The notes beneath the pieces were generated by a model, which was not told the origin of the DNA, did not search any database, and saw nothing but the letters and a program-made list of their open reading frames with translations. A DNA stretch of 64,000 bases from Eledone cirrhosa (Eukaryota). Below, piece after piece: positions 3,133 to 58,000 of this stretch. The stretch lies in NCBI GenBank assembly GCA_964016885.1, contig OZ024742.1, positions 3,224,001 through 3,288,000 on the forward strand, in the 5' to 3' direction. The position numbers and the translations under genes are program-made. Numbering within the stretch: the first letter of the stretch is position 1; every line of letters starts with the position of its first letter.

Positions 3133-3180
3133 GATTGACCTGATGAGTCCTTAATAGGACGAAACATTGTCGGCTAATAA
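3133..3180 (+). ncRNA. Minimal type I hammerhead ribozyme motif (PLE pLTR-type); stem I degenerate
   Basis: CTGATGA 3140-3146; stem II GTCCT-TAAT-AGGAC; GAAAC-ATT-GTC 3161-3171; AATAAA follows; weak stem I. Confidence 0.7.
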
Positions 3181-3321: not shown

Positions 3322-3390
<69 letters not shown>

Positions 3391-3399
<9 letters not shown>

Positions 3400-5123
3400 T
3401 TCAAAACATTAACAAAATAGATATTCTTGTGATAAAGTATATTTTCTTATACATATTTCAGAGGTACTGAGTGAGTTAAGTTCAAAAGTACGTCCTCATC
3501 AGATAAAATAAGATGATGCATGACATACCCTGACATAGTAGATGGTTAAGATTCAGTCATGGTAGTGAGTAATATATGACAAAACTCAATATTTATACCT
3601 TAATATTGAGAACATGAGAAAAATATATAATACATACAATAGGGAGTGTGCATGTAATATAGATTAAAAAATACATGGCATCAATATAACAGTTTAAAAA
3701 TTTAAATTACTGAAGAAAGAGGAAAGAAAGGAAAGCATAGAGGAAGAAACAGCTGATGGGATAATATAGTTAGTTAGTGCCTCGAAAGACAAATGAGAGA
3801 TGATTAAAGAGAGAGAGAGAGACAAAGGGGAATAATTTATGTTCAAGTTTATAGACAATTATCCATATATACAATATATATCTAAACTTACTTGGTTGAT
3901 CGTTAATATTCAAAATATTTAATTTAAGTTAGTTCAGAGTAATGAATAATATTTTAAGTTTTAAAAGTTAATAGGTATCTGTATTAATATTATAGTATAC
4001 TATCAAGTTTAATTTCTAAAATTCAAATTTTATGAAATCAAATTTAAAGGATTTATGAACACGAGAAAGAAAATATATAATGTTTTTATAACATCACGAA
4101 GGTAAACTTTACCAAAATTATTTATAATATTGACAACAGTTTATATAATATAATTTATAAAATAATTATAGTTATAATTATTAAAGAATTCATGATTAAC
4201 AATTTCAGTGCCTAAAAGATCAACAGGCCTTATAATTAAACTTAAAGAAGTCTGAATTTTAAATAATATATATGTGTTAATCAAAAAATATACAAGGATT
4301 ATATTGTCTAAAGTCTTAAGGTGATACCTTTCAAATATATATAACATAATACAATAATACAATATAGTAAATAAGTTACTGAAAATATTGTTAAAAAATA
4401 TTGTTAAAAATTTATGTTTTATATCAATTATTGTAAAAGGATCATTTATTTGGTATATACTATAAATATATAAGTCAAAACTACATGAGTCCTAAGGATA
4501 AGGGCTAGATACAAAATAAATATAAAAATAAAAATAAAAAGTGAAAAATAATGAATTGTTTGCGAAACTTAAAAATGCCCAATATTAAAAATATAGTTTA
4601 AAATGTAATAGGGTTTTAATATATAGTAGACAAAAGATACTTCTCAAATGTCCAGTGAATGTGATAGAAAGAGGAGCTAAAGACTTGAAAAAGCCGAAGG
4701 TAATCTAAATTTAATTAAAATAAATTAAATTATATTAAATTAAGTAATAATCATTATATAATTTCGAACATCCGGGGAATATCTAACACTTATAAAAATA
4801 TAGAGTCATTTGAGTATCTAAATTATTTATAAATGTAACTACGAACATGTTATTATACTAGATAAACATATTTGTACAACTATATAGAGAGAGTATTAAA
4901 GGTATTAATGAAACTATATACATTTAATAAATAAATAATTATAATCATTATTAGTAATGCTATAATTGTAGTTTTACCCCCAGTTCAGTGGAGAGAGAGA
5001 CCAATATTTGTCGACTAGTATGGTTTGTTATATTTATGATACACATCTCTCTCATTTCCATGTTTGTTTATGTTGCTTCTATAAATTGACTGTTCTATTT
5101 ACATTATTCCGCTATATTATCTG

Positions 5124-5169
<46 letters not shown>

Positions 5170-5397
5170 GTGTGTGTATTCGATCTTTGTATATATTATG
5201 TATTTACCAGTGCTCTTTGTAATCACAATTCTAGATTTTTCCTTTTAAAGAAAGAAAAGAAAAAATGTTCTTACAATCATTTATATATATGATGAGGACG
5301 TACTGTTGAACTTAACTCAGTACCTCTGAAATATGTAAAATAAAATATACTTGATCACAAGAATATCTATTTTGTTAATATTTTGAATTAATATTAA
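3391..5397. mobile_element. Decayed PLE-like remnant bounded by ~110-bp inverted repeats carrying a degenerate hammerhead core
   Basis: 3391-3500 is the reverse complement of ~5290-5397 (gatgaggacgtact..tgaacttaactc..gtacctctgaaatatgt); minus-strand CTGATGAGGAC at ~3492-3502; left end abuts (TA)n. Confidence 0.5.
5034..5285. repeat. Inverted duplicate of the sequence flanking the 6053-14161 PLE (empty-site copy)
   Basis: Its reverse complement closely matches ~5875-5993 + (TA)n + ~14183-14275. Confidence 0.9.
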
Positions 5398-5840: not shown

Positions 5841-5992
5841 ACCTAACATATTAATATTGAGATTCTATCATATTTAATAAAAGATTGTAAGGACACCTTT
5901 TTCTTTTCTTTCTTTAAAAGGAAAAATCTAGAATTGTGATTACAAAGAGCACTGGTGAACACATAATATATACAAAGATCGAATACACACAC

Positions 5993-6052
<60 letters not shown>

Positions 6053-6060
<8 letters not shown>

Positions 6061-8531
6061 AGATCAAAAGATGGTTAAAGGAGTTCAATATATTTTATTA
6101 TGCGCATTTCAAAAACAAACATCATCAAACAATAATATTTGTGTTTTCATCAGATAAAACAGGAGAACATGATATGAAGGCTAAAAAAACACTTGTTGAT
6201 AGTGCAGTTTTAAATCAACATATGAAAAGTGGTTTTAGATTGATGTGTGATATTGGGAAAAATATTTTATTTAGAGAGGGGGGGAGAGAAAAGGATGAAA
6301 AGGGAAGGAGATGAGAGGGAGAGATGGGTGATAGAGAGAAAGAGATAGTTTTTATAACAGAGAGGAGATATATTTTATATAGAGGGGTTGAAAACCGTTG
6401 GAAGATACTGTATAAATTAAAAATTTTGAAAATTAACGAAGGGAGGATATGTGCGAGGAAAAAATATATTATATTTAGGGAGGGGTGGGGGTGGAAAGGA
6501 TGAAAAAAAGGGAGGAGATGAGAGTGAAGGTGGAAAGGGAGAGATGGGTGATAGAGAGAAAGAGATAGTTTTTATAACTGAGAAAAAGATATAATGTTTT
6601 AATATAGAGAGGTTGGGAACCGTTGGAAGATAATGTATAAATTAAAGGAATTTGAAAATTAACGAAGGGAAATTATGTATGGAGATAGAGAGAAAAAAAT
6701 AACGAAGGGAGATTATGTATGGAGATAGAGAGAAAAAAATAATAATTGTGGGTGAATATTCAAAAGGAGAAATGTAGGAATCTTAAAATTAGCAAAGAGA
6801 AAAAGTTTATGTATAGGATTTGAGAAAAATTTATATTGAATTCATATGTATTAATAATGAGTTCGTTGATGGGGAGAAAAAAATAATAATAATAAATTAA
6901 GGATGAAATTGAGATTAAAAAGATTTATGATAGAGAGAAAAAATAATAATGATTGCGGATGAATACTCAAAATGTCAAAAACAAATGTTATTGTTTTACG
7001 AAGAGATATAATGAGGGTGATGAGTAAACGGGTATTATAGAGTGTATAATGCCCTTTAAAGTAAGGTAGATGGGTATATTTTAAAGAATATATGAGTATA
7101 TATTAAAAAAAATATATATAATAATAAATTAAGGATGAAATTGAGATTAAAAAGATTTATGATAGAGGGAAAAAAAAAAAAATAATAATGATTGCGGATG
7201 AATATTCAAAATGTCAAAAACAAATGTTATTGTTTTACGAGAAGATAGGATGAGGTAAATGAATAAACGAGTACTATAGAGTGTATAATGCCCTTTAAAG
7301 TAAGGTAGATGGGTATATTTTAAAGAGGTGTATGTATATGTGCCTTTGAGAAAAGATTCTAAATTGATAAAGAATTGAATATTAACTGTATACTTTGTGA
7401 AAAGTTCTATGGAATTTATGAAGGCAGATGGAAAACAAATCCGAGCGTCTATTTATTATGGATTCTAGGTTAGAGATAATGGTAAATTTTTCATTTAGGC
7501 AGAGATTACAGATTTTAGATAGAGAACTGTTCAAGTACGAGGATGCAGAAGAAATCTTTTTCCAAAAGATGTTATATTTAATGTTTTTGTCTTTTAAGGA
7601 CCATATGAGTTCTGAGAGAGCAGTGTTAGTTCTTTTAAGTTTGTATTTGAAAGATGAATGATGATTATAGAGACGAGCTTTAAAAGAGGTGGAAGTGGAG
7701 CCAAAATAGGTGAAGGAGTTGGTGCTAGTTATAATTTTACATTCATAAATTAAGTTTTTATCGAGGCAATGGTTGTTGAGAGGACATTTATTTTTAATGC
7801 GGCAGTTGCAATTAGAGAGATTATTAATGAGTGATCTAGTGTTATCTATAGAAGGAATTGGATTGGAGAAGTTGTTTGCGATAGGAATAATAGGAATAAT
7901 AGTTTCTTGATTTAGAGTTGGATTATGAACATTTAGCGAAGTTGTGTTTGACGTTGCATTTGGGTTTACAGAAGTTAGCCTAGGGTTTACAATGACGTCA
8001 GGAGTACTATTATTGTTATTATGAGATTCAATATTGGAAGGAAGAGATTTAGTATTTAATATTTTGTTGTTGTGTTTAGAAATGATGTTGGAAATATTGG
8101 AGGATGTAGAATACGAAAATTTAATGGTGTGTTTGTTAAATATTTTACTATAGATATGTGAGGGAGGGAAGCATTTATTTAAGGCACTAAAAAATAATTT
8201 AGGAATATTGTTATTAATAGAGATGGAGAAAGGAGCATTATACCAGATTATGTTTTTGTATCTAGGTCTTTTATTAAAATTATTGGAATGGTTATGATTA
8301 AATATTCTACTGTAAGTTTTCCTAGAATTTGTTTCTTTATTATATTTGATTTTATCTGGATAGCCAGCTTTAGAAAGTGCGTTATTATAGTAATTGGCGT
8401 TAGCATCAAAGATGTTTTTATTAGAAGATATGTTAGATATTCTATTTCCAATATTATTAACTATAGCATTCTTGATATTGGTAGGATGGTTAGATTTAAA
8501 GTTAACATAATTAAGATTCTCATTGTTTTTA
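6053..8531 (-). repeat. Inverted 5'-truncated copy of the PLE 3' half (ORF C-terminus + pLTR)
   Basis: ORF 7382-8554(-) is identical to the main ORF from KNNENLNYVNF to the stop; TTTTA microhomology at 8527-8531. Confidence 0.95.
6092..6160 (-). ncRNA. Hammerhead ribozyme (copy in inverted arm)
   Basis: Reverse complement of 10065-10133. Confidence 0.85.
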
Positions 8532-10260
8532 AAGCTCGTCTCTATAATCATCATTCATCTTTCAAATACAAACTTAAAAGAACTAACACTGCTCTCTCAG
8601 AACTCATATGGTCCTTAAAAGACAAAAACATTAAATATAACATCTTTTGGAAAAAGATTTCTTCTGCATCCTCGTACTTGAACAGTTCTCTATCTAAAAT
8701 CTGTAATCTCTGCCTAAATGAAAAATTTACCATTATCTCTAACCTAGAATCCATAATAAATAGACGCTCGGATTTGTTTTCCATCTGCCTTCATAAATTC
8801 CATAGAACTTTTCACAAAGTATACAGTTAATATTCAATTCTTTATCAATTTAGAATCTTTTCTCAAAGGCACATATACATACACCTCTTTAAAATATACC
8901 CATCTACCTTACTTTAAAGGGCATTATACACTCTATAGTACTCGTTTATTCATTTACCTCATCCTATCTTCTCGTAAAACAATAACATTTGTTTTTGACA
9001 TTTTGAATATTCATCCGCAATCATTATTATTTTTTTTTTTTTTTTTTCCCTCTATCATAAATCTTTTTAATCTCAATTTCATCCTTAATTTATTATTATA
9101 TATATTTTTTTTTTTTTTAATATATACTCATATATTCTTTAAAATATACCCATCTACCTTACTTTAAAGGGCATTATACACTCTATAATACCCGTTTACT
9201 CATCACCCTCATTATATCTCTTCGTAAAACAATAACATTTGTTTTTGACATTTTGAGTATTCATCCGCAATCATTATTATTTTTTTTCTCTCTATCATAA
9301 ATCTTTTTAATCTCAATTTCATCCTTAATTTATTATTATTATTTTTTTCTCCCCATCAACGAACTCATTATTAATACATATGAATTCAATATAAATTTTT
9401 CTCAAATCCTATACATAAACTTTTTCTCTTTGCTAATTTTAAGATTCCTACATTTCTCCTTTTGAATATTCACCCACAATTATTATTTTTTTCTCTCTAT
9501 CTCCATACATAATCTCCCTTCGTTATTTTTTTCTCTCTATCTCCATACATAATTTCCCTTCGTTAATTTTCAAATTCCTTTAATTTATACATTATCTTCC
9601 AACGGTTCCCAACCTCTCTATATTAAAACATTATATCTTTTTCTCAGTTATAAAAACTATCTCTTTCTCTCTATCACCCATCTCTCCCTTTCCACCTTCA
9701 CTCTCATCTCCTCCCTTTTTTTCATCCTTTCCACCCCCACCCCTCCCTAAATATAATATATTTTTTCCTCGCACATATCCTCCCTTCGTTAATTTTCAAA
9801 ATTTTTAATTTATACAGTATCTTCCAACGGTTTTCAACCCCTCTATATAAAATATATCTCCTCTCTGTTATAAAAACTATCTCTTTCTCTCTATCACCCA
9901 TCTCTCCCTCTCATCTCCTTCCCTTTTCATCCTTTTCTCTCCCCCCCTCTCTAAATAAAATATTTTTCCCAATATCACACATCAATCTAAAACCACTTTT
10001 CATATGTTGATTTAAAACTGCACTATCAACAAGTGTTTTTTTAGCCTTCATATCATGTTCTCCTGTTTTATCTGATGAAAACACAAATATTATTGTTTGA
10101 TGATGTTTGTTTTTGAAATGCGCATAATAAAATATATTGAACTCCTTTAACCATCTTTTGATCTTATATTATGCATACTCCAGTCCCACAAACTGTAGAG
10201 TGCTTCTTATCCGATATCTGCATTGCTTTATTGTACTACAATAAAACTCACCTCCTACAT
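8527..10260 (+). repeat. 5' pseudo-LTR (partial tandem copy of element 3' end)
   Basis: Matches 12438-14161 except in poly-T lengths; starts inside the EN-coding region, ends at CCTCCTACAT. Confidence 0.93.
10065..10133 (+). ncRNA. Minimal type I hammerhead ribozyme in 5' pLTR
   Basis: Stem I GTTTTAT/ATAAAAT; CTGATGA 10072-78; ~16-bp stem II with GTTT loop; GAAA 10115-18; palindromic stem III ATGCGCAT; predicted cut after AUA at 10126. Confidence 0.88.
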
Positions 10261-10278
10261 TTACTTGCTCCTTAACGG

Positions 10279-12741
10279 TTGAGCGCTTACTCTCATATTG
10301 GATACCTTTTGATGGTCCTTCACCTCTTCTTCTACAACATGGATTATTACAACATAACCAATTCTACTAAAGACATTCCTATACCTGGTAAATCTGAATT
10401 CACCAAACTTCTTATTGAAAAAACTGACTCCTTCGTAAGAAGACTTAGATGGACAGCCTATTTCTATGACCAGCGCCTAAAAGGGAACTTTCATACCAAA
10501 GAACACAACTTCCTCGATCATCTTTTTAATTCCAGACGAAATCCTCCTTCCAACAAAAATCTAGCACAATTCGAGGAAGAATTAACTAAAATTATAAAAA
10601 ATCTTAAATTCAAGAGATACCCTTACAAAGGACAAGAGCACCTTGTAAATCTCAAGAACACAATCTCTAACCTAAATTCCTCAAAAAATGTTTTAGTCCA
10701 CTCTGACAAAACCAATAACCTATATGGTATTTCCAAGGATAATTATAACAACCTTATCCTAAAGGAACTTAGGAAAAAGTATCGTAAAACCAACCATGAA
10801 AATTTAGAATGCATAAACCTTGAAGCCTATGAGATTATGTCAAAACTTGGCATTGAAAAAAAGACCGAACCATTCCTCCCAAGAACTCCGAGGATAAATC
10901 TCAAGGATCACAAAAACAATTTTCGCACTGAACTACCTGTTAGATTAATCGCCCCCTCTAAATCTGATCTGGGGGTTGTTAGTAAAGCCATCTTGGATAG
11001 GATTATCCCACAGGTTAGTTCTAATTGCTCTTCTTTAAACCTAAATTTATGGTTTGGTACTTCTGAAGTGATTGGCTGGTTCAACAAATTGGATAATAAA
11101 AACAAACTAAAATTTATTCAATTCGATATTGCCAGCTACTATTCCTCCATTTCGCCTTCACTTCTCAATAATGCTCTATCTTTCGCACTTAAATATTCTG
11201 ACATCACCACAGATGAACTTCACATCATCCTCACCGCACGTAAAACCATCCTAGAGTTCAACAACGAATATTGGACCAGAGCCGATACCTCTAACAACTT
11301 CGACATCACAATGGGAGCATCCGATTCATCCCAATTGACTGATTTAATTGGTATCTTCATTTTGAACTCTTTGAGTCGGAAAATTCCTCAACTTCGCGGT
11401 GGAATTTATCGTGACGATGGACTCTTTACTATCCTAAATTGCAATATAGTTAAACTTAATATTATTAAGAACAATATACGTAATCTCTTTAACCAACATA
11501 ACCTAAAAATTGAATTTGATAATAGTACCAAACTAGCTAATTTCTTGGATGTATCTCTTAATCTTGACACTGGCCTATATTACCCTTACCATAAAAACAA
11601 TGAGAATCTTAATTATGTTAACTTTAAATCTAACCATCCTACCAATATCAAGAATGCTATAGTTAATAATATTGGAAATAGAATATCTAACATATCTTCT
11701 AATAAAAACATCTTTGATGCTAACGCCAATTACTATAATAACGCACTTTCTAAAGCTGGCTATCCAGATAAAATCAAATATAATAAAGAAACAAATTCTA
11801 GGAAAACTTACAGTAGAATATTTAATCATAACCATTCCAATAATTTTAATAAAAGACCTAGATACAAAAACATAATCTGGTATAATGCTCCTTTCTCCAT
11901 CTCTATTAATAACAATATTCCTAAATTATTTTTTAGTGCCTTAAATAAATGCTTCCCTCCCTCACATATCTATAGTAAAATATTTAACAAACACACCATT
12001 AAATTTTCGTATTCTACATCCTCCAATATTTCCAACATCATTTCTAAACACAACAACAAAATATTAAATACTAAATCTCTTCCTTCCAATATTGAATCTC
12101 ATAATAACAATAATAGTACTCCTGACGTCATTGTAAACCCTAGGCTAACTTCTGTAAACCCAAATGCAACGTCAAACACAACTTCGCTAAATGTTCATAA
12201 TCCAACTCTAAATCAAGAAACTATTATTCCTATTATTCCTATCGCAAACAACTTCTCCAATCCAATTCCTTCTATAGATAACACTAGATCACTCATTAAT
12301 AATCTCTCTAATTGCAACTGCCGCATTAAAAATAAATGTCCTCTCAACAACCATTGCCTCGATAAAAACTTAATTTATGAATGTAAAATTATAACTAGCA
12401 CCAACTCCTTCACCTATTTTGGCTCCACTTCCACCTCTTTTAAAGCTCGTCTCTATAATCATCATTCATCTTTCAAATACAAACTTAAAAGAACTAACAC
12501 TGCTCTCTCAGAACTCATATGGTCCTTAAAAGACAAAAACATTAAATATAACATCTTTTGGAAAAAGATTTCTTCTGCATCCTCGTACTTGAACAGTTCT
12601 CTATCTAAAATCTGTAATCTCTGCCTAAATGAAAAATTTACCATTATCTCTAACCTAGAATCCATAATAAATAGACGCTCGGATTTGTTTTCCATCTGCC
12701 TTCATAAATTCCATAGAACTTTTCACAAAGTATACAGTTAA
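10279..12741 (+). CDS. PLE polyprotein: reverse transcriptase + C-terminal GIY-YIG endonuclease (first ATGs at 10312 and 10339)
   Basis: HSDKTNNLY, QFDIASYYSSI, ITMGASDS, IYRDDG, NFLDVSLNL, YHKNN..YVN..SNHP; CNC..CPL..C; LIYECKI..TYFGST..FKARL..H; CNLCLNEK..CLH; no internal stops. Confidence 0.93.
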   Translation: MSAYSHIGYLLMVLHLFFYNMDYYNITNSTKDIPIPGKSEFTKLLIEKTDSFVRRLRWTAYFYDQRLKGNFHTKEHNFLDHLFNSRRNPPSNKNLAQFEEELTKIIKNLKFKRYPYKGQEHLVNLKNTISNLNSSKNVLVHSDKTNNLYGISKDNYNNLILKELRKKYRKTNHENLECINLEAYEIMSKLGIEKKTEPFLPRTPRINLKDHKNNFRTELPVRLIAPSKSDLGVVSKAILDRIIPQVSSNCSSLNLNLWFGTSEVIGWFNKLDNKNKLKFIQFDIASYYSSISPSLLNNALSFALKYSDITTDELHIILTARKTILEFNNEYWTRADTSNNFDITMGASDSSQLTDLIGIFILNSLSRKIPQLRGGIYRDDGLFTILNCNIVKLNIIKNNIRNLFNQHNLKIEFDNSTKLANFLDVSLNLDTGLYYPYHKNNENLNYVNFKSNHPTNIKNAIVNNIGNRISNISSNKNIFDANANYYNNALSKAGYPDKIKYNKETNSRKTYSRIFNHNHSNNFNKRPRYKNIIWYNAPFSISINNNIPKLFFSALNKCFPPSHIYSKIFNKHTIKFSYSTSSNISNIISKHNNKILNTKSLPSNIESHNNNNSTPDVIVNPRLTSVNPNATSNTTSLNVHNPTLNQETIIPIIPIANNFSNPIPSIDNTRSLINNLSNCNCRIKNKCPLNNHCLDKNLIYECKIITSTNSFTYFGSTSTSFKARLYNHHSSFKYKLKRTNTALSELIWSLKDKNIKYNIFWKKISSASSYLNSSLSKICNLCLNEKFTIISNLESIINRRSDLFSICLHKFHRTFHKVYS

Positions 12742-14161
12742 TATTCAATTCTTTATCAATTTAGAATCTTTTCTCAAAGGCACATATACATACACCTCTT
12801 TAAAATATACCCATCTACCTTACTTTAAAGGGCATTATACACTCTATAGTACTCGTTTATTCATTTACCTCATCCTATCTTCTCGTAAAACAATAACATT
12901 TGTTTTTGACATTTTGAATATTCATCCGCAATCATTATTATTTTTTTTTTTTTTTCCCTCTATCATAAATCTTTTTAATCTCAATTTCATCCTTAATTTA
13001 TTATTATATATATTTTTTTTTAATATATACTCATATATTCTTTAAAATATACCCATCTACCTTACTTTAAAGGGCATTATACACTCTATAATACCCGTTT
13101 ACTCATCACCCTCATTATATCTCTTCGTAAAACAATAACATTTGTTTTTGACATTTTGAGTATTCATCCGCAATCATTATTATTTTTTCTCTCTATCATA
13201 AATCTTTTTAATCTCAATTTCATCCTTAATTTATTATTATTATTTTTTTCTCCCCATCAACGAACTCATTATTAATACATATGAATTCAATATAAATTTT
13301 TCTCAAATCCTATACATAAACTTTTTCTCTTTGCTAATTTTAAGATTCCTACATTTCTCCTTTTGAATATTCACCCACAATTATTATTTTTTTCTCTCTA
13401 TCTCCATACATAATCTCCCTTCGTTATTTTTTTCTCTCTATCTCCATACATAATTTCCCTTCGTTAATTTTCAAATTCCTTTAATTTATACATTATCTTC
13501 CAACGGTTCCCAACCTCTCTATATTAAAACATTATATCTTTTTCTCAGTTATAAAAACTATCTCTTTCTCTCTATCACCCATCTCTCCCTTTCCACCTTC
13601 ACTCTCATCTCCTCCCTTTTTTTCATCCTTTCCACCCCCACCCCTCCCTAAATATAATATATTTTTTCCTCGCACATATCCTCCCTTCGTTAATTTTCAA
13701 AATTTTTAATTTATACAGTATCTTCCAACGGTTTTCAACCCCTCTATATAAAATATATCTCCTCTCTGTTATAAAAACTATCTCTTTCTCTCTATCACCC
13801 ATCTCTCCCTCTCATCTCCTTCCCTTTTCATCCTTTTCTCTCCCCCCCTCTCTAAATAAAATATTTTTCCCAATATCACACATCAATCTAAAACCACTTT
13901 TCATATGTTGATTTAAAACTGCACTATCAACAAGTGTTTTTTTAGCCTTCATATCATGTTCTCCTGTTTTATCTGATGAAAACACAAATATTATTGTTTG
14001 ATGATGTTTGTTTTTGAAATGCGCATAATAAAATATATTGAACTCCTTTAACCATCTTTTGATCTTATATTATGCATACTCCAGTCCCACAAACTGTAGA
14101 GTGCTTCTTATCCGATATCTGCATTGCTTTATTGTACTACAATAAAACTCACCTCCTACAT
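12438..14161 (+). repeat. 3' pseudo-LTR with ~1.4-kb 3'UTR containing internal tandem duplications
   Basis: Direct repeat of 8527-10260; ~243-bp duplication (12797/13040), a second of ~230-240 bp (13456/13683), and 39-bp repeats. Confidence 0.93.
13966..14034 (+). ncRNA. Hammerhead ribozyme in 3' pLTR
   Basis: Identical to 10065-10133; predicted cut after 14027. Confidence 0.88.
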
Positions 14162-14634
14162 ATATATATATATATATATATATGACAGATAATATAGCGG
14201 AATAATGTAAATAGAACAGTCAATTTATAGAAGCAACACAAACAAACATAGAAATGAGAGAGATGTGTATCATAAAGAATATATAGCAGAATATTGTATC
14301 TGATTTAAGAATATTTTTCTGAAGGAAGACGGTATTCCATATTGGCAATGTTATAGAAAATTTTGATGAAACAAAATGGCTTCTAATTCTATTGGTGACA
14401 AAGAAATGTATTGGAGAAAACCAATAAAATGTCTGTTCACAAAGAGTTTCATTCAGTTTATATATTTACAACATCGAAGATATAATAATTTGAAGATAAT
14501 AATCAGAATTCTCATTCATATTTTCAGTCTAACCAGTGGTACATGCATAGAATATTATTAAAATTTAAAATAAAACATAGGTGTATATATATATATATAT
14601 ATATATACATACAAATAAGTGTGAGTATGTATAA

Positions 14635-14885: not shown

Positions 14886-15140
14886 CTATTGTGTATATGC
14901 CAACATGTCTGGAAAGCAACAAATGAAATCAACAGAATCAGAAAGAATTATAAAGGAGATATCATCGAAATTATCAACACTTATCACGATGATTGACGCA
15001 CTATTTTAAAGGAAATAGAAAAACAATCTACAGACGGAAAACTTTTAAGTGAACATATAAACTCTCAAATTAAGAATTTAGCTGAAATTATACCAACAAT
15101 TATCAAAGATACAAGAGAAAGCCTACCACAACCCCCTTGG

Positions 15141-16259
15141 ATGTCAGAACTAAACGAAAGAAATTTGGAAAACAAAACACATCGAATAAGAAAAGAAATG
15201 TGGAAGACAGGGAAACAATTTCTTAACATAAGAAAACAAAACTTCTGTAAAGCATACAAATGCGAAAAATATGTCGAAACACATTCGAAATGGCTCTCTC
15301 TAACGGCACCCATACTCCCTCGTAAATACCTAATTACAGAAATTGTAGGAGAACCAGAAGAAGAAACAAAACTCCGATGGGAACTTACATTGACAAAATT
15401 CAGGACCGACATCTCCATTTCTCCATGTAAACAATCCCGCTACAAAGCCAAATATGAAGCTATCGATGACCAAATTGAAGTTGAAATTTCAAAGCTAACG
15501 ACTGGTATTATAGCTGAAAAACTACGAGAACTATGGATCAGAGATATTTCAAAAGAAGAAAACAAATCAAGAAAGGTATGGCAGCAGAAACAATTATTTC
15601 TCGACGAATATGCTGCAAATTACGGTAAAGACTTTGGAACCCTGAGAAAAAGCATTAAAAGTGGACAATCTCACCAACACAACATACGCCAGAACACGTG
15701 CCAACACAAACACTCACCTTACCTTGAATCAAAGAAGAATTACGGTAATAACTCTTCGCTTTTTCTACAAAAACACCCTATCGCACACAACATGAACAAA
15801 AAGCACAAACACGATAGATATTCCTTTGACCAGACCATGAGAAGTAGTAAAACCAGGAGAACATTCTCAAGATCTCAACAGAGACTACCAACAAGGAATG
15901 TGGAAACAAAACGTAGAATAACCAGATCACTCTCAAGATCTCAACAGAGATTACCCACAAGAAACTGGGCGAAAAAACGATCTAAACCTGAAAGCAAACC
16001 TAGGACATTTCCCCAGATTGTTAAAAATAATGCTAACAAGAAATGGAAAAATAATATAAATAATATACATAATACCAAAAATAGGACAAAATGCATAACG
16101 AAACCAAATATAATATCACGACCAAAAGTTCATCAAGCGAACACCGACAGGAATATAAATCCTGAACAGAGAACAATCCATTTTTTAACGTCAGGACAAC
16201 AAAAACCGGAAAAAGAAAAACTCCAGGAGGAAACATATCCAAAACAACTGTACACGTAG
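15141..16259 (+). CDS. Upstream ORF1 / N-terminal region of Neptune-like PLE (charged helical half, basic low-complexity tail)
   Basis: 372-codon ORF inside the element overlapping the RT frame in -1; no catalytic motif recognised. Confidence 0.55.
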   Translation: MSELNERNLENKTHRIRKEMWKTGKQFLNIRKQNFCKAYKCEKYVETHSKWLSLTAPILPRKYLITEIVGEPEEETKLRWELTLTKFRTDISISPCKQSRYKAKYEAIDDQIEVEISKLTTGIIAEKLRELWIRDISKEENKSRKVWQQKQLFLDEYAANYGKDFGTLRKSIKSGQSHQHNIRQNTCQHKHSPYLESKKNYGNNSSLFLQKHPIAHNMNKKHKHDRYSFDQTMRSSKTRRTFSRSQQRLPTRNVETKRRITRSLSRSQQRLPTRNWAKKRSKPESKPRTFPQIVKNNANKKWKNNINNIHNTKNRTKCITKPNIISRPKVHQANTDRNINPEQRTIHFLTSGQQKPEKEKLQEETYPKQLYT

Positions 16260-26796: not shown

Positions 26797-26963
26797 ATTT
26801 AGTATATCTACTAACATATGCGTACAGATGTACGCTAATGCTAGCAAATACACAGGTTATGTGATAGTACCTAGGTGGTTCAATGCAGGAGGATGCAGAA
26901 CAATAATATAAAAGACGTAAAAGAAGAAAATTTTAAAAAATTAACTTACTTACTAAATTTTTC

Positions 26964-27044
26964 ACTCCAACTAATTAGTTTCTGCAATGGAATAAAGACA
27001 GTTACGTAATAAACTGTCGAGAATTTATTGCGTCACCAGGGAGT
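26964..27044 (-). ncRNA. Hammerhead copy with mutated core (CTGGTGA)
   Basis: Near reverse complement of 28007-28087 with A>G in the core. Confidence 0.65.
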
Positions 27045-28006
27045 CTATTCTCAGCTAAGTCTCCAGGCAATGCGCGGACACTGGGGACACTCATATAAAA
27101 ATAATAATAATTCGGTAAATGGAACAGCTAGCGGGGACTGGATTCCATGCACTGAAAATCTCGCTGTCACTGGTCAAATGGCTGATTCTAAAGAATCAAT
27201 CACGTGACACTGAGGCTAGTCGGTAGGAGTGGGATGGTAAGATGATAGAAGCCTACTAACACACCAATAAATTAGTAGTGGTTTTGGCAGGTTTGCTCGA
27301 CAAATAAGTAATTTGGAGATAAATATAGAGAATTTAGTATATCTACTAACATATGCGTACAGATGTACGCTAATGCTAGCAAATACACAGGTTATGTCAT
27401 AGTACCTAGGTGGTTCAATGCAGGAGGATGCAGAACAATAATATAAAAGACGTAAAACAAGAAAATTTTAAAAAATTAACTTACTTACTAAAATTTTCAC
27501 TCCAACTAATTAGTTTCTGCAATGGGATAAAGACAGTTACGTAATAACTGGAGTGAAAATTTTAGTAAGTAAGTTAATTTTTTAAAATTTTCTTATTTTA
27601 CGTCTTTTATATTATTGTTCTGCATCCTCCTGCATTGAACCACCTAGGTACTATGACATAACCTGTGTATTTGCTAGCATTAGCGTACCTCTGTACGCAT
27701 ATGTTAGTAGATATACTAAATTCTCTATATTTATCTCCAAATTACTTATTTGTCGAGCAAACCTGCCAAAACCATTACTAATTTATTGGTGTGTTAGTAG
27801 GCTTCTGTCATCTTACCATCCCACTCCTACCGACTAGCCTCAGTGTCACGTGAATGATTCTTTAGAATCTGCCATTTGACCAGTGACAGCGAGATTTTCA
27901 GTGCATGGAATCCAGTCCCCGCTAGCTGTTCCATTTACCGAATTATTATTATTTTTATATGAGTCCCCAGTGTCCGCGCATTGACTGGAGACTTAGCTGA
28001 GAATAG

Positions 28007-28087
28007 ACTCCCTGATGACGCAATGAATTCTCGACAGTTTATTACGTAACTGTCTTTATCCCATTGCAGAAACTAATTAGTTGGAGT
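28007..28087 (+). ncRNA. Type I hammerhead ribozyme with extended stem II
   Basis: Stem I ACTCC/GGAGT; CTGATGA 28012-18; stem II GCAATG/CATTGC plus GACAGTT/AACTGTC; GAAA 28069-72; palindrome ACTAATTAGT; cut after GUU at 28082. Confidence 0.88.
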
Positions 28088-28149
28088 GAAAAATTTAGTA
28101 AGTAAGTTAATTTTTTAAAATTTTCTTCTTTTACGTCTTTTATATATAT

Positions 28150-33884: not shown

Positions 33885-34220
33885 AATATTGAAAAAGTGA
33901 AGAATAACATGGTCAACAGTACAAACAAGGGTTTTATTTACAGTCTGACAATTGTTTCACTGATTAATTTGTCTAAAAATTGCTGAACACTTGAAGTTGT
34001 GCCACTCAATTTTAAATACGTTGTTAGCTTAACCAGATCATCGGAGATAACTGTTTATACCCGATGATCTGGTTAAGCTAACAACGTATTTAAAATTGAG
34101 TGGCACTGCTTCAAGTGTTCAGCAATGTTTAGACGAATTAATCAGTGAAACAATTGTCAGACTGTAAATAAAACCCGTTTTTGTACTGTTGATCATGTTA
34201 TTCTTCATTTTTTCAATTAT
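33885..34220. repeat. ~330-bp palindrome whose arms carry a degenerate long-stem-II hammerhead
   Basis: Arms meet near 34050; CCGATGA(34061)-tctggttaa...ttaatcagt-GAAA-CAATTG-TC-agactgt, then AATAAA. Confidence 0.75.
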
Positions 34221-34430: not shown

Positions 34431-34531
34431 TATAAACCCACTGAACCACAAATTATGTGTACTGATACCCATCATTTTGAGCCCGCGCTCCAAACACACA
34501 CACACAGACACACATATATATATATACATAC

Positions 34532-34812
34532 TATAATTGAATATAAAAGAGAGATAAACACACATATATACATATGTGTGTTCAAATCGTAAGGGACCAG
34601 GTACGCTAGGGTGAAAAAAATACTAACTATAAACAATAGGGTTTGCCAGACTCAATTTAATATATTTTCTTGATTTATTCTTTTAAATTGAGTCTGGCAA
34701 CTCCTATTGTTTATAGTTAGTATTTTTCTTCATCCTAGCGCACCTGGTCCCTTACGATTTGAACACATATATGTATATATCTGTGTTTATCTCTCTTTTA
34801 TATTCAATTATA
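34532..34812. repeat. ~280-bp palindrome (fold-back)
   Basis: ttcaaatcgtaagggaccagg..ttgccagactcaatttaa mirrored by ttaaattgagtctggcaa..cctggtcccttacgatttgaa. Confidence 0.85.
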
Positions 34813-34894
34813 ATATACGGCTCGGAAAAATCTCTTTCCTAGAGCTATTTAATTGTAAGAGACTATTTTGAGTTTCTAACTCAACATATATCTT

Positions 34895-46869: not shown

Positions 46870-47316
46870 ACTAGACCTGAAAAATGAAAAATGCGCAAGC
46901 TCAAAAGAGCCACAGAATGTTATAATAAACCTTCAAAAGTGTGGGACTAGTTGCTCAAATATATTGTAATCACATCTATCGTACACTCTGTGGCATCCTT
47001 TTATAAAAAAGAGACTCATAACGAACTCAAGACGACACGATTATTATTTAAGCCAATGTTCAATATCTCATATTAGATGTTTAGTAATGATTAATACGAA
47101 ATGCAGTTAAACCGAATTCTATATTATAAATTCACTTAAATAATTATCGTGTCGTCTTGAGTTCGTTATGAGTCTCTTTTTTATAAATGGATGCCACAGA
47201 GTGTACGATAGATAATGATTACAATATTTTTGAACAATAACTCTAGCCCCACACTTTTGAAGGTTTATTATAACATTCTGTGGCTCTTTTGAGCTTGCGC
47301 ATTTTTCAGGTCTAGT
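46870..47316. repeat. ~450-bp fold-back element (~180-bp arms)
   Basis: actagacctgaaaaatg..gacgacacgat mirrored by atcgtgtcgtc..catttttcaggtctagt. Confidence 0.85.
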
Positions 47317-51280: not shown

Positions 51281-52033
51281 TATATATATATCTATGTATG
51301 TATAATGGACACTCCCATTATATATCGACGTTTCAGTGTCTTCTCAATTCATTTTTACACATCAAGCCACTTTTAGTTCAGATGGCATGACTTTAAGCAG
51401 AGCAGGATCGAAAGTTTCATCGGACCTTAGTGTTAGATATTAGATCCCGAATAAGGGCATTATGTATGTATATATGTATGTGCATATATATATATATGTG
51501 TGTGTGTCTGCGTACGTGCGTGCGTGTGTGTGTGTGTGTGTGGGGGGGGTTATGTGTGTGTATTTGGTCCGATGACAGTATTTTAGTAGCATATGGAATA
51601 CATATAATCCTAATCTAATTTAGTAACAATTTGGATCACAATATTATGATATCCCTAATAGATTAGAGGCCCTCTATGCCAACGTTTGACCTGGACGCCC
51701 GACATGCTAACATTAGCAACAAAACATCTTGAAATAACACAGAAAACAACTTGAAGGATAATACGTGATGATTACTGAAGAAATGCGTTTGATTTGTTCA
51801 ATCGAAGCTGACGTGGGGCTAAATAACAACAATAGATGAAATATATTGCATCACTAGAACTAGAAGCCAAATCTTCTTCAGGACGCTACTTTCTTAAACT
51901 AAGGTGACATACTGTAGCATGTAGAAGAGAGAAATGACTTGAGGCTTTTAATAATAGATTTGATGGATTGTGGTTGATATAGGGTTAATCCTCATTAGCA
52001 ACTAAAACAACAATTTCAACAATTTCAACATCA

Positions 52034-55000
52034 TTGAAGACAGCAACGTTGAAGACAGCAACTTTGAAGACAGCAGCATTGAAGACAACAACGTTGAAGA
52101 CAGCAACGTTGAAGACATCAACGTTTGAAGACAACAACGTTGAAGACAACAACGTTGAAGACAGCAACGTTGAAGACAAAAACATAGAAGATAGCAACGT
52201 TGAAGACAGCAACGTTGAATACAGCAACGTTGAAGACAGCAACGTTGAAGACAACAACGTTGAAGACAACAACGTTGAAGACAATAACGTTGAAGACATC
52301 AACGTTGATGACAGCAACGTTGAGGCAGCAACGTTGAAGACAACAACGTTGAAGACAACAACGTTGAAGGCAGCAACGTTGAAGACAGCAACGTTGAAGA
52401 CAGCAACGTTGAAGACAACAACGTTGAAGACAACAACGTTGAAGACAGCAACGTTTAAGACAGCAACGTTGAAGACAGCAACGTTAAAGACAACAAGGTT
52501 GAAGACAACAACGTTGAAGACAGCAACGTTGAAGACAACAACGTTGAAGACAGCAACGTTTAAGACAGCAACGTTGAAGACAGCAACGTTAAAGACAACA
52601 AGGTTGAAGACAACAACGTTGAAGACAGCAACGTTGAAGACATCAACGTTGACGACAGCAACGTTGAAGACAACAACGTTGAAGACAGCAACGTTTAAGA
52701 CAGCAACGTTGAAGACAGCAACGTTGAAGACAACAACGTTGAAGACAGCAACGTTGAAGACAGCAACGTTGAAGACAACAACGTTGAAGAAAACAACGTT
52801 GAAGACAACAACGTTGAAGACAGCAACGTTTAAGACAGCAACGTTGAAGACAACAACGTTGAAGACAACAACGTTGAAGACAGCACCGTTGAAGACAACA
52901 ACGTTGAAGACAGCAACGTTGAAGACAACAACGTTGAAGACAGCAACGTTTAAGACAGCAACGTTGAAGACAGCAACGTTGAAGACAACAACGTTGAAGA
53001 CAGCAACGTTGAAGACAGCAACGTTGAAGACAATAACGTTGAAGACAGCAACGTTGAAGACAGCAACGTTGAAGACAGCAGCGTTGAAGACAACAACGTT
53101 GAAGACAGCAACGTTGAAGACAAAAACGTAGAAGACAGCAACGTTGAAGACAACAACGTTGAAGACAGCAACGTTGAAGACAACAACGTTGAAGACAGCA
53201 ACGTTGAAGACAGCAACGTTGAAGACAACAACGTTGAAGAAAACAACGTTAAAGACAACAACGTTGAAGACAACAACGTTGAAGACAGCAACGTTGAAGA
53301 CAGCAACGTTGAAGACAACAACGTTGAAGAAAACAACGTTGAAGACAACAACGTTGAAGACAGCAACGTTTAAGACAGCAACGTTGAAGACAACAACGTT
53401 GAAGACAACAACGTTGAAGACAACAACGTTGAAGACAACAACGTTGAAGACAGCAACGTTGAAGACAACAACGTTGAAGACAGCAACGTTGAAGACAACA
53501 ACGTTGAAGACAGCAACGTTTAAGACAGCAACGTTGAAGACAGCAACGTTGAATACTACAACGTTGAAGACAATAACGTTGAAGATAGCAAAGTTGAATA
53601 CAACAACGTTGAAAAGAACGACGTTGTAGATAACAACGTTGAAGACAGCAACGTTGAAGATAACAAAGTTGAAGACAATAACGTTGAAGACAATAACGTT
53701 GATGACAGCAACGTTGAGGCAGCAACGTTGAAGACAACAACGTTGAAGACAACAACGTTGAAGACAGCAACGTTGAAGACAGCAACGTTGAAGACAGCAA
53801 CGTTGAAGACAACAACGTTGAAGACAGCAACGTTGAAGACAACAACGTTGAAGACAACAACGTTGAAGACAGCAACGTTGAAGACAGCAACGTTGAAGAC
53901 AGCAACGTTGAAGACAACAACGTTGAAGACAGCAACGTTGAAGACAGCAACGTTGAAGACAGCAACGTTGAAGACAGCAACGTTGAAGACAACAACGTTG
54001 AAGACAGCAACGTTGAAGACAGCAACGTTTAAGATAGCAACGTTGAAGACATCAACGTTGAAGACAACAACGTTGAAGACAGCAACGTTGAAGACAGCAA
54101 CGTTGAAGACAACAACGTTGAAGACAGCAACGTTGAAGACAGCAACGTTGAAGACAGCAACGTTGATGACAGCAACGTTGAAGACAACAACGTTGAAGAC
54201 AACAACGTTGAAGACAGTAACGTTTAAGACAGCAACGTTGAAGAAAGCAACGTTGAAGACAACAACGTTGAAGACAGCAACGTTAAAGACTGTAACCTTG
54301 AAGACAACAACGCTGAAGACAGCAACGTTGAAGACAACATCGTTGAAGACAGCAACGTTGAAGACAACAACGTTGAAGACAACAACGTTGAAGACAACAA
54401 CGTTGAAGACAACAACGTTGAAGACAGCAACGTTGAAGACAGCAACGTTGAAGACAACAACGTTGAAGACAACAACGTTGAAGACAACAACGTTGAAGAC
54501 AGCAACGTTGAAGACAACAACGTTGAAAAGAACGACGTTGTAGATAACAACGTTGAAGACAGCAACGTTGAAGATAACAAAGTTGAAGACAATAACGTTG
54601 AAGACAATAACGTTGAAGACATCAACGTTGATGACAGCAACGTTGAGGCAGCAACGTTGAAGACAACAACGTTGAAGACAACAACGTTGAAGACAACAAC
54701 GTCGAAGACAACAACGTTGAAAACAACATCATTGAAGACAAAAACGTTGAAGACAGCAACGTTGAAGGCAACAACGTTGAAGATAACAACGTTGAATACA
54801 ACAACGTTGAAGACAATAACGTTGAAGATAGCAAAGTTGAATACAACAACGTTGAAAAGAACGACGTTGTAGATAACAACGTTGAAGACAGCTACGTTGA
54901 AGATAACAAAGTTGAAGACAATAACGTTGAAGACAATAACGTTGAAGACATCAACGTTGATGACAGCAACGTTGAGGCAGCAACGTTGAAGACAACAACG

Positions 55001-58000
55001 TTGAAGACAACAACGTTGAAGACAGCAACGTTGAAGACAGCAATGTTGAAGACATCAACGTTGAAGACAGCAACGTTGAAGACAACAACGTTGAAGACAG
55101 CAACGTTGAAGACAACAACGTTGAAGACAGCAACGTTGAAGACAACAACGTTGAAGACAGCAACGTTTAAGACATCAACGTTGAAGACAGCAACGTTGAA
55201 GACAACAACGTTGAAGACAGCAACGTTGAAGACAGCAACGTTGAAGACAACAACGTTGAAGACAGAAACGTTGAAGACAACAACGTTGAAGAAAACAACG
55301 TTGAAGACAACAACGTTGAAGACAACAACGTTGAAGACAGCAACGTTGAAGACAGCAACGTTGAAGACAACAACGTTGAAGACAACAACGTTGAAGACAA
55401 CAAAGTTGAAGACAACAACGTCGAAGACAACAACGTTGAAAACAACATCATTGAAGACAAAAACGTTGAAGACAGCAACGTTGAAGGCAACAACGTTGAA
55501 GATAACAACGTTGAATACTACAACGTTGAAGACAATAAACGTTGAAGATAGCAAAGTTGAATACAACAACGTTGAAAAGAACGACGTTGTAGATAACAAA
55601 GTTGAAGACAATAACGTTGAAGACAATAACGTTGAAGACATCAACGTTGATGACAGCAACGTTGAGGCAGCAACGTTGAAGACAACAACGTTGAAGACAA
55701 CAACGTTGAAGACAGCAACGTTTAAGACAGCAACGTTGAAGACAACAACGTTGAAGACAACAACGTTGAAGACAACAACGTTGAAGACAACAACGTTGAA
55801 GACAGCAACGTTGAAGACAACAACGTTGAAGACAGCAACGTTGAAGACAACAACGTTGAAGACAGCAACGTTTAAGACAGCAACGTTGAAGACAGCAACG
55901 TTGAATACTACAACGTTGAAGACAATAACGTTGAAGATAGCAAAGTTGAATACAACAACGTTGAAAAGAACGACGTTGTAGATAACAACGTTGAAGACAG
56001 CAACGTTGAAGATAACAAAGTTGAAGACAATAACGTTGAAGACAATAACGTTGATGACAGCAACGTTGAGGCAGCAACGTTGAAGACAACAACGTTGAAG
56101 ACAACAACGTTGAAGACAGCAACGTTGAAGACAGCAACGTTGAAGACAGCAACGTTGAAGACAACAACGTTGAAGACAGCAACGTTGAAGACAACAACGT
56201 TGAAGACAACAACGTTGAAGACAGCAACGTTGAAGACAGCAACGTTGAAGACAGCAACGTTGAAGACAACAACGTTGAAGACAGCAACGTTGAAGACAGC
56301 AACGTTGAAGACAGCAACGTTGAAGACAGCAACGTTGAAGACAACAACGTTGAAGACAGCAACGTTGAAGACAGCAACGTTTAAGATAGCAACGTTGAAG
56401 ACATCAACGTTGAAGACAACAACGTTGAAGACAGCAACGTTGAAGACAGCAACGTTGAAGACAACAACGTTGAAGACAGCAACGTTGAAGACAGCAACGT
56501 TGAAGACAGCAACGTTGATGACAGCAACGTTGAAGACAACAACGTTGAAGACAACAACGTTGAAGACAGTAACGTTTAAGACAGCAACGTTGAAGAAAGC
56601 AACGTTGAAGACAACAACGTTGAAGACAGCAACGTTAAAGACTGTAACCTTGAAGACAACAACGCTGAAGACAGCAACGTTGAAGACAACATCGTTGAAG
56701 ACAGCAACGTTGAAGACAACAACGTTGAAGACAACAACGTTGAAGACAACAACGTTGAAGACAACAACGTTGAAGACAGCAACGTTGAAGACAGCAACGT
56801 TGAAGACAACAACGTTGAAGACAACAACGTTGAAGACAACAACGTTGAAGACAGCAACGTTGAAGACAACAACGTTGAAAAGAACGACGTTGTAGATAAC
56901 AACGTTGAAGACAGCAACGTTGAAGATAACAAAGTTGAAGACAATAACGTTGAAGACAATAACGTTGAAGACATCAACGTTGATGACAGCAACGTTGAGG
57001 CAGCAACGTTGAAGACAACAACGTTGAAGACAACAACGTTGAAGACAGCAACGTTGAAGACAACAACGTTGAAGACAACAACGTTGAAGACAACAACGTC
57101 GAAGACAACAACGTTGAAAACAACATCATTGAAGACAAAAACGTTGAAGACAGCAACGTTGAAGGCAACAACGTTGAAGATAACAACGTTGAATACAACA
57201 ACGTTGAAGACAATAACGTTGAAGATAGCAAAGTTGAATACAACAACGTTGAAAAGAACGACGTTGTAGATAACAACGTTGAAGACAGCTACGTTGAAGA
57301 TAACAAAGTTGAAGACAATAACGTTGAAGACAATAACGTTGAAGACATCAACGTTGATGACAGCAACGTTGAGGCAGCAACGTTGAAGACAACAACGTTG
57401 AAGACAACAACGTTGAAGACAGCAACGTTGAAGACAGCAATGTTGAAGACATCAACGTTGAAGACAGCAACGTTGAAGACAACAACGTTGAAGACAGCAA
57501 CGTTGAAGACAACAACGTTGAAGACAGCAACGTTGAAGACAACAACGTTGAAGACAGCAACGTTTAAGACAGCAACGTTGAAGACAGCAACGTTGAAGAC
57601 AACAACGTTGAAGACAGCAACGTTGAAGACAGCAACGTTGAAGACAACAACGTTGAAGACAGAAACGTTGAAGACAACAACGTTGAAGAAAACAACGTTG
57701 AAGACAACAACGTTGAAGACAACAACGTTGAAGACAGCAACGTTGAAGACAGCAACGTTGAAGACAACAACGTTGAAGACAACAACGTTGAAGACAACAA
57801 AGTTGAAGACAACAACGTCGAAGACAACAACGTTGAAAACAACATCATTGAAGACAAAAACGTTGAAGACAGCAACGTTGAAGGCAACAACGTTGAAGAT
57901 AACAACGTTGAATACTACAACGTTGAAGACAATAAACGTTGAAGATAGCAAAGTTGAATACAACAACGTTGAAAAGAACGACGTTGTAGATAACAAAGTT

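Follow-up and report, generated by a model that had tools for sequence, protein, structure and literature searches.

We analysed a 64,000-nt stretch of the Eledone cirrhosa genome (the window; assembly GCA_964016885.1, contig OZ024742.1, positions 3,224,001 to 3,288,000) that contains a Penelope-like element (PLE) at 6053–14161. The element consists of two head-to-head arms inside a (TA)n tract: an inverted arm (6053–8531, minus strand) and a direct part (8527–14161, plus strand) that amounts to 1.44 copies of a 3901-nt unit. It is a very young, intact PLE of the Hydra clade, and we lean slightly towards the view that its longer-than-unit arm was copied from a 3901-nt RNA circle made by its hammerhead ribozymes. 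Its features, in window positions, are as follows.

5867–6052, no strand: left flank; belongs to a small repeat and closes with the (TA)n target tract
6053–8531, minus: inverted, 5'-truncated arm, equal to 11592–14073; its 3' end falls 46 nt beyond the cut of the hammerhead
6093–6159, minus: third hammerhead copy, antisense, within the inverted arm
8527–8531, no strand: 5-nt microhomology uniting the 5' ends of both arms
8527–10260, plus: upstream direct repeat (pseudo-long terminal repeat, pLTR), with the end of the endonuclease (EN) region, the 3' untranslated region (UTR), the hammerhead and 134 nt beyond
10002, plus (also 13903, and 6223 on minus): putative capped transcription start, 125 nt upstream of the cut
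10066–10132, plus: first sense hammerhead, type I, predicted cut after 10126
10127–14027, plus: cut-to-cut unit of 3901 nt, the predicted monomer or circle
10339–12741, plus: open reading frame (ORF) of 800 aa, with a reverse transcriptase (RT) that is telomerase-like, an N-rich insert, a CxCX5C linker and, at the C terminus, a GIY-YIG EN
12438–14161, plus: downstream direct repeat (pLTR)
12742–13966, plus: long 3' UTR holding internally duplicated stretches of about 240, 225 and 40 nt
13967–14033, plus: second sense hammerhead, predicted cut after 14027
14073–14161, plus: fixed arm ends +46 (14073) and +134 (14161), both TA-like and matching the target; the 88 nt between them form the 'tail'
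14162–14276, no strand: right flank, opening with (TA)n and continuing the empty-site paralogue

The initial annotation had described an uninterrupted ORF with YRDD and GIY-YIG motifs, pLTRs differing only in poly-T length, and identical sense hammerheads with cuts after 10126 and 14027, 3901 nt apart. We reproduced all three. The frame ran from the ATG at 10339 to the stop at 12741 without an in-frame stop, and alignment of the two pLTRs gave 10 gap columns, all T and confined to three poly-T runs, with no substitution. The inverted arm differed from the reverse complement of 11592–14073 by three T gaps and zero substitutions. The 5' ends of the arms were unrelated (11592 versus 12438). An element-free paralogue of the target repeat, about 96% identical, was found at 5033–5293 on the minus strand, indicating that no flank was lost on insertion. 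A local inverted duplication lies near this paralogue (3391–3517 and 5276–5396). Seven AUGs occur between 10002 and the ORF (10002–10311), and the predicted cut would remove six of them, so cleavage could affect translation. Another in-frame ATG lies upstream of the ORF start, at 10312.

Hammerhead, ORF protein and clade

The first sense hammerhead comprises a 6-bp stem I (10066–71/10127–32), CUGAUGA (10072–78), a 36-nt stem II (10079–10114), GAA (10115–17) and a stem III formed by a palindromic 8-nt segment (10118–25), which as a monomer closes a 2-nt loop. ViennaRNA forbids such a loop; two copies, paired through the palindrome, reached −12.5 kcal/mol. The hammerhead is predicted to need a partner copy for cleavage, and metazoan motifs of this sort are reported to cut weakly and chiefly as dimers. 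An Rfam scan returned no match at E ≤ 1, and the monomer fold was no better than that of shuffled sequences (z −1.05; stem II alone, z −2.63). We accepted the hammerhead because of its core motifs, its position, and the near-invariance of core and stems in 324 arms of the family. Frequent variants in these arms were confined to loop II and the bases just after stem I, with other positions varying in about 3% or less; subfamily changes within the hammerhead sat in loop II and spared core and stems. The positions on either side of the cut were unaltered in 323/324 and 324/324 arms.

The protein carries DKT (aa 123–125), YRDD (aa 357–360), CxCX5C (aa 659–667), CxxCxxEK (aa 759–766) and CxH (aa 787–789). 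Its EN occupies aa 680–781, downstream of YRDD, and is thus C-terminal. Sequence searches of Pfam and PDB found no match for the 800-aa protein, and Pfam recognized GIY-YIG in only 1 of 15 aligned members. Its structure model had a predicted local distance difference test score of 89 and was confident except in an N-rich, disordered insert at about aa 590–654; rotifer Penelope elements are also known to carry N-rich inserts at this place, between the RT and the EN. The top PDB fold match of the whole model was TERT (E 1e-7). In a wide structure search, the last 147 aa matched I-TevI (Z 8.8, root-mean-square deviation 2.4, 89 residues aligned), followed by T4 EndoII and the UvrC GIY-YIG domain; a Foldseek search with only the EN domain put GIY-YIG nucleases at the top but yielded nothing at E ≤ 0.001. 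A single ORF with telomerase-like RT and GIY-YIG EN, together with a partial tandem of pLTRs, an inverted 5'-truncated copy and a tail, is the composition of an EN-containing PLE.

The initial annotation had read the DKT and CxLCxxEK..CxH motifs correctly and had taken them as signs of the Naiad clade. They belong to the Hydra clade, which Craig et al. (2021, PMC8557442) define by a C-terminal EN, RWK, DKT, CxCX5C, CxxC plus CxH, no CCHH, a hammerhead and a (TA)n target. We found a C-terminal EN, DKT (a modified DKG; the same in 46 of the 58 homologs spanning the column), CxCX5C, and CxxC and CxH flanking the catalytic E and N. CCHH was absent from the EN, which has one Cys between the two tyrosine motifs. 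The pLTR hammerhead has the layout of the Hydra hammerheads in File S2 of that supplement, and (TA)n was the target of the window element and of nearly all sister arms. At the RWK position the protein has RWT (aa 37–39), and the third residue varied among homologs (n = 50: RWK 20, RWR 14, RWE 2, RWA 2).

In the same source, Naiad is defined by an N-terminal EN, DKA, CCHH and no canonical hammerhead. A Naiad identity could appeal to the (TA)n target and the tandem/inverted layout, both of which that source also gives for other PLEs. The protein, however, has neither an N-terminal EN nor DKA nor CCHH nor a CxC domain between EN and RT, with two isolated Cys in its first 250 aa, and a canonical hammerhead is present. 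Naiad_Obim in the supplement begins with its EN; in a comparison by eye only, Hydra-1_Obim was colinear with the element protein and Naiad_Obim was not. The order of domains by itself refutes Naiad, for which we see practically no chance, and an earlier remark on missing selenocysteine UGA codons becomes moot. The element almost certainly represents a new family within the known Hydra clade, as far as its sequence can tell; the closest homologs found were about 40% identical.

Like other Hydra elements in that source (e.g. Hydra-1_Obim, Hydra-1_Ajap), it combines tandem and inverted layout, a type I hammerhead and a (TA)n target. Its 3.9-kb unit exceeds the usual length given there (<3 kb), owing to the 1.3-kb repeat-rich 3' UTR and a long linker (88 aa, versus 14–37 in most homologs). 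RWT for RWK and the 36-nt stem II also set it apart from the Hydra families listed there, and its 88-nt tail is longer than the 30–40 bp cited for PLEs.

Fixed arm ends and the template of short pairs

In the 3.0-Gb genome, a 31-mer spanning the cut matched exactly at 1,603 places, a 25-mer immediately downstream of the cut at 9,949 and a 25-mer from the 5' UTR at 223. For each k-mer the first 100 places were listed, and all family counts rest on the matches listed. We read 200 stretches (loci with L numbers below): all 59 loci from the 31-mer list, 40 further stretches from the 25-mer list (six long pairs excluded) and all 100 listed places of the 223 5'-UTR matches; 12 extra stretches were excluded from the long-arm counts. 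Arm 3' ends were typed by hand. Relative coordinates count from the predicted cut, with 0 at window 10126 or 14027 and +1 the next nucleotide.

At the loci read, 48 of 109 ORF starts encoded 790–810 aa, and 14 ORFs at 12 other loci encoded a protein identical to that of the window, bearing out the initial description of an intact, young PLE. Judged from these letters, the family is very young and the window copy intact. The unit measures 3.9 kb in the window element and 3.66 kb in older subfamilies, and the family was present in three contig sequencing runs of unrecorded kind. Repeats within one locus shared private alleles in 7/53 tandem and 17/79 inverted comparisons; in a search for inherited differences, upstream and downstream repeats differed at 92 points in total, 74 of them distinct. 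Fragments of other related PLE families (62–67% DNA identity) were also seen, at L103:7434-8470, L129:8004-8704, L138:1194-2189, L179:783-2227 and L191:6119-7490.

Nearly every head-to-head pair (127/129) consisted of one arm ending at +46 and one ending at +134; the exceptions, L098 and L119, were both +46/+46. Both ends are TA-like and merge into the (TA)n target. Their position downstream of the cut means that copying does not begin at the cut end of a monomer. The two arms of a pair shared subfamily alleles in 98/100 pairs (33 expected by shuffle), which could equally reflect shared age. Arms of the +134 type broke off early far more often than +46 arms (47/162 versus 9/166), suggesting that both primers sat on one RNA; many of these breaks fell between +20 and +109, as if blocked by the +46 primer. 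The arm ends make it very probable that both (TA)n strands prime reverse transcription, one at +46 and the other at +134. We rejected a poly(A) origin of the +134 end (AATAAA at 14141), as junctions lacked A tracts and some arms carried the next internal bases. Replication of the short pair as a single unit resembling a miniature inverted-repeat transposable element is unlikely, given that junctions were heterogeneous and one junction recurred in different subfamilies. No mixed-family pair was found among five solos inspected.

A total of 76 arms stopped exactly at −124 (window 10002), 125 nt upstream of the predicted cut. A palindromic overlap at the join masked the next base in 26 of them; 24 of the remaining 50 carried an untemplated G where the element has C, against a background of 7%. 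An RT can copy the cap as an extra G, as is known from work on L1. We infer that the extra G is a copied cap and that 10002 is a capped transcription start. The cDNAs that stopped there had crossed the hammerhead, so their RNA was uncut. Among the chromosome-C1 pairs in which both arms reached the start (n = 51), both arms stopped in 32, both passed in 17 and only 2 were mixed (p = 2e-11). Of five subfamily types seen, three showed both stop and pass classes, and these included the three commonest. These data argue strongly for a capped, uncut RNA as the template of the short inverted pairs, and the commonest insertion product would then derive from uncut RNA.

A published model for rotifer Penelope elements derives the inverted arm from self-priming on an antisense transcript and not from a second target strand. 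Palindromic junctions, found at 13 loci, would fit it. It is at odds with the two arms ending at separate fixed sites that both merge into (TA)n, and with the cap-like G that either arm can carry; moreover, arm 5' ends are often unrelated, as in the window. We regard self-priming as very improbable here.

The template of long arms

The 5'-UTR list yielded 93 long arms, with multi-unit arms counted once and L137 excluded as a mini-tandem; seven had broken 3' ends, leaving 86 typed. A linear RNA begun at 10002 should stop all long arms at the upstream start, yet only 1 of the 52 that reached it stopped there, which suggests a template without that end. In addition, 18/86 typed arms ended beside +46 or +134, about one unit from where copying began, versus 4.5 expected (p = 1e-6; 2e-4 when the expectation was raised by half). 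By type, +46 arms contributed seven stalls at +25 to +51 and six at +113 to +143, and +134 arms none and five. Some arms among the loci read spanned at least 2.4 units, and one spanned 5.1 units. A circle would explain all of this: no 5' end, return to a primed site and several units from one. We therefore regard a ribozyme-made circle as the template of long arms with a confidence close to even, on arm-end statistics read from DNA. The joint of 14027 with 10127 is identical in its letters to the genomic repeat at either cut, so reads across the back-junction would be uninformative.

The chief competitor keeps the two priming sites but has long arms copied from uncut linear RNA, either by read-through of multi-unit donors or by a cDNA that moves in register from the capped 5' repeat across to the 3' repeat; the hammerhead would be dispensable for insertion, and the stalls would come from a second protein bound at the upstream repeat. 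Several observations favour this scheme or weigh against the circle. The short pairs were copied across an uncut hammerhead and so show that uncut RNA works as a template. Donors of 2.4 to 5 units exist (3/93 arms and, in addition, a 5-unit array), which means that some long arms can come from linear tandem RNA. The preference of stalled arms for their own start site was marginal (7 and 6 versus 0 and 5; two-sided p = 0.10), the stall windows were set after the data were seen, and +39 to +46 is TA-like and may draw microhomology joins (one of the seven stalls there was a TA-flanked solo). The closing pair of stem II is A-U where G-C is usual, and low subfamily divergence makes the invariant stems weak evidence of selection. 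In the only in vitro system, that of Frangieh et al. (2024, PMC11167929), mutating the Poseidon hammerhead left insertion normal, the template was mainly unprocessed RNA, and no read had its end at the cut site.

Against uncut linear RNA stand three results. A start at 10002 should pile long arms at the upstream start, where hardly any stop. The stop/pass mixtures expected of chance transfer were nearly absent (2/51). No donor junction was transferred to another locus: at 142 loci with a called junction, no non-start junction was common to independent loci, and the junction 40-mers that were shared proved to be start/start joins, three miscalled internal stretches and one locus fetched twice, so that no donor junction had been carried along. 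We consider this scheme less likely than the circle, though to be taken seriously.

In another scheme the hammerheads cut, the monomer stays unligated, and the RT, having reached the cut 5' end, jumps to the cut 3' end, giving the same tandem product. It accounts equally well for the absent cap stop and the unit-length stalls. It could also claim single +134 arms that end at +3 (L178, L192) and L137, where both arms (4356-5184) bear tandem copies of a 211-nt piece, +4 to +214, which suggests a mini-circle or a jump beginning near the cut. Against it, the cut site was scar-free, with positions 0 and +1 as constant as described above, and long arms did not pile up at +1 (2/93 within 7 nt, both TA-flanked solos). 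We judge this scheme improbable. At L109:4442-4524, a +134 arm that had gone full circle passes from +127 to −70 by way of a short microhomology and so leaves out both priming sites.

The circle remains our preferred template; private alleles shared within loci, subfamily changes kept to loop II of the hammerhead, the dimer energy of the palindrome and the head-to-head multi-unit arms of a 310-nt hammerhead repeat also speak for this scheme. The events could be ordered as follows. Capped transcription would begin at 10002. The hammerhead is predicted to cut only as a pair, through the 8-nt palindromic stem III, so that a one-copy RNA would stay uncut and a two-copy RNA would be cut at 10126 and 14027 and then ligated, presumably by an RtcB-type ligase by analogy with retrozymes. 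Both (TA)n strands would prime at +46 and +134, most likely on one RNA, as the pattern in the DNA suggests. On uncut capped RNA, both cDNAs would extend across the hammerhead as far as the cap, which would yield the short inverted pair commonly seen. With a circle as template, they would pass the start and often stall on returning to a priming site, or continue into tandems of 1.4 to 5 units. Short microhomology unites the 5' ends of the arms, giving the head-to-head layout seen in the DNA. In the window copy, the +134 cDNA would have run 1.44 units and the +46 cDNA 0.64 unit. More tentatively, with the balance just short of even, the element may be an autonomous protein-coding PLE that retrotransposes through the 3.9-kb circle made by its ribozyme, and in which the dimer-only hammerhead serves as a counter: one-copy RNAs would stay capped and uncut and give thousands of short inverted stubs, and two-copy RNAs would give circles that restore the tandem for the next round.

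The circle model is not new. Cervera and de la Pena (2014) already proposed self-cleavage, ligation and more-than-unit reverse transcription with dimer-dependent hammerheads, and head-to-head hammerhead pairs 100–700 bp apart were also known from the literature. The present family brings genomic footprints to that model and shows, besides, a second template for the short pairs, one that is capped and uncut. Likewise, the dual cleavage and circularisation suggested in the initial annotation gained indirect support from the arm-end statistics; that reading had overlooked the two priming sites, the start at 10002 and the uncut-RNA source of the commonest product. No genomic test of a PLE circle model like the present one was found in the literature searched, which covered few subscription journals.

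In the in vitro system of PMC11167929, Poseidon_Ac resembles the element: downstream of the hammerhead it has two internal sites at which the RT starts, and these delimit the tail; both DNA strands are cut and extended, and its target is AT-rich. The Poseidon_Ac sites lie inside the ORF, have no homology to the target and are used equally by both strands, whereas those of the element lie in the 5' UTR, are TA-like and are used one of each per insertion. The Poseidon_Ac hammerhead was dispensable, whereas the long arms of the element suggest a template without a 5' end. Metazoan non-LTR retrozymes (PMC7229834; bioRxiv 10.64898/2026.07.22.740005) share type I hammerheads in tandem units; they form circles through double cleavage and RtcB ligation, and their mobilisation by PLEs has been proposed. 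They are non-coding units of 170–400 nt whose circles have been shown, whereas the present unit measures 3.9 kb, encodes its enzyme and would form its circle as deduced above.

Other hammerhead families and biological meaning

A 310-nt tandem hammerhead family resembling retrozymes occurred at L107:1794-5072 (10.5 units), L155:1-2385 and L129:1-548. In L155 it forms head-to-head multi-unit arms whose fixed end lies in (TA)n, 139 nt beyond the cut of this family. This is the layout of the PLE, so the family was probably moved by a PLE. At least five more hammerhead families adjoin (TA)n among the fetched loci (L046, L054, L101, L126, L136, L153, L182 and others). Within the window, a decayed hammerhead of another family lies at 3136–3176, about 155 nt before (TA)n at 3325. 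The window also contains a 420-aa open frame with no Pfam match, possibly a piece of another retroelement (14997–16259), palindromic or inverted-repeat elements (26906–28145, 33888–34217, 34528–34816, 46885–47308), and a long tandem array (52026–64000) that matches itself, at about 90% similarity, when shifted by about 15 nt or multiples of this.

The role of PLE hammerheads and the origin of tandem and inverted ends are stated as open questions in the literature, and the sole in vitro study found the ribozyme dispensable. As a single copy the window element is ordinary, and its interest rests on the mechanistic record of its family. The family is young and abundant, and in its arm ends the mechanism is recorded as two fixed sites of priming, a mark of the cap, two classes of template and stalls at unit length. 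A direct test can start from exact coordinates and intact copies, and the same counts are feasible for any PLE in a long-read assembly. If the proposal is true, a single model with two primers on one circle would account for pLTRs, inverted arms and tail, and it could be read from genome sequence alone.

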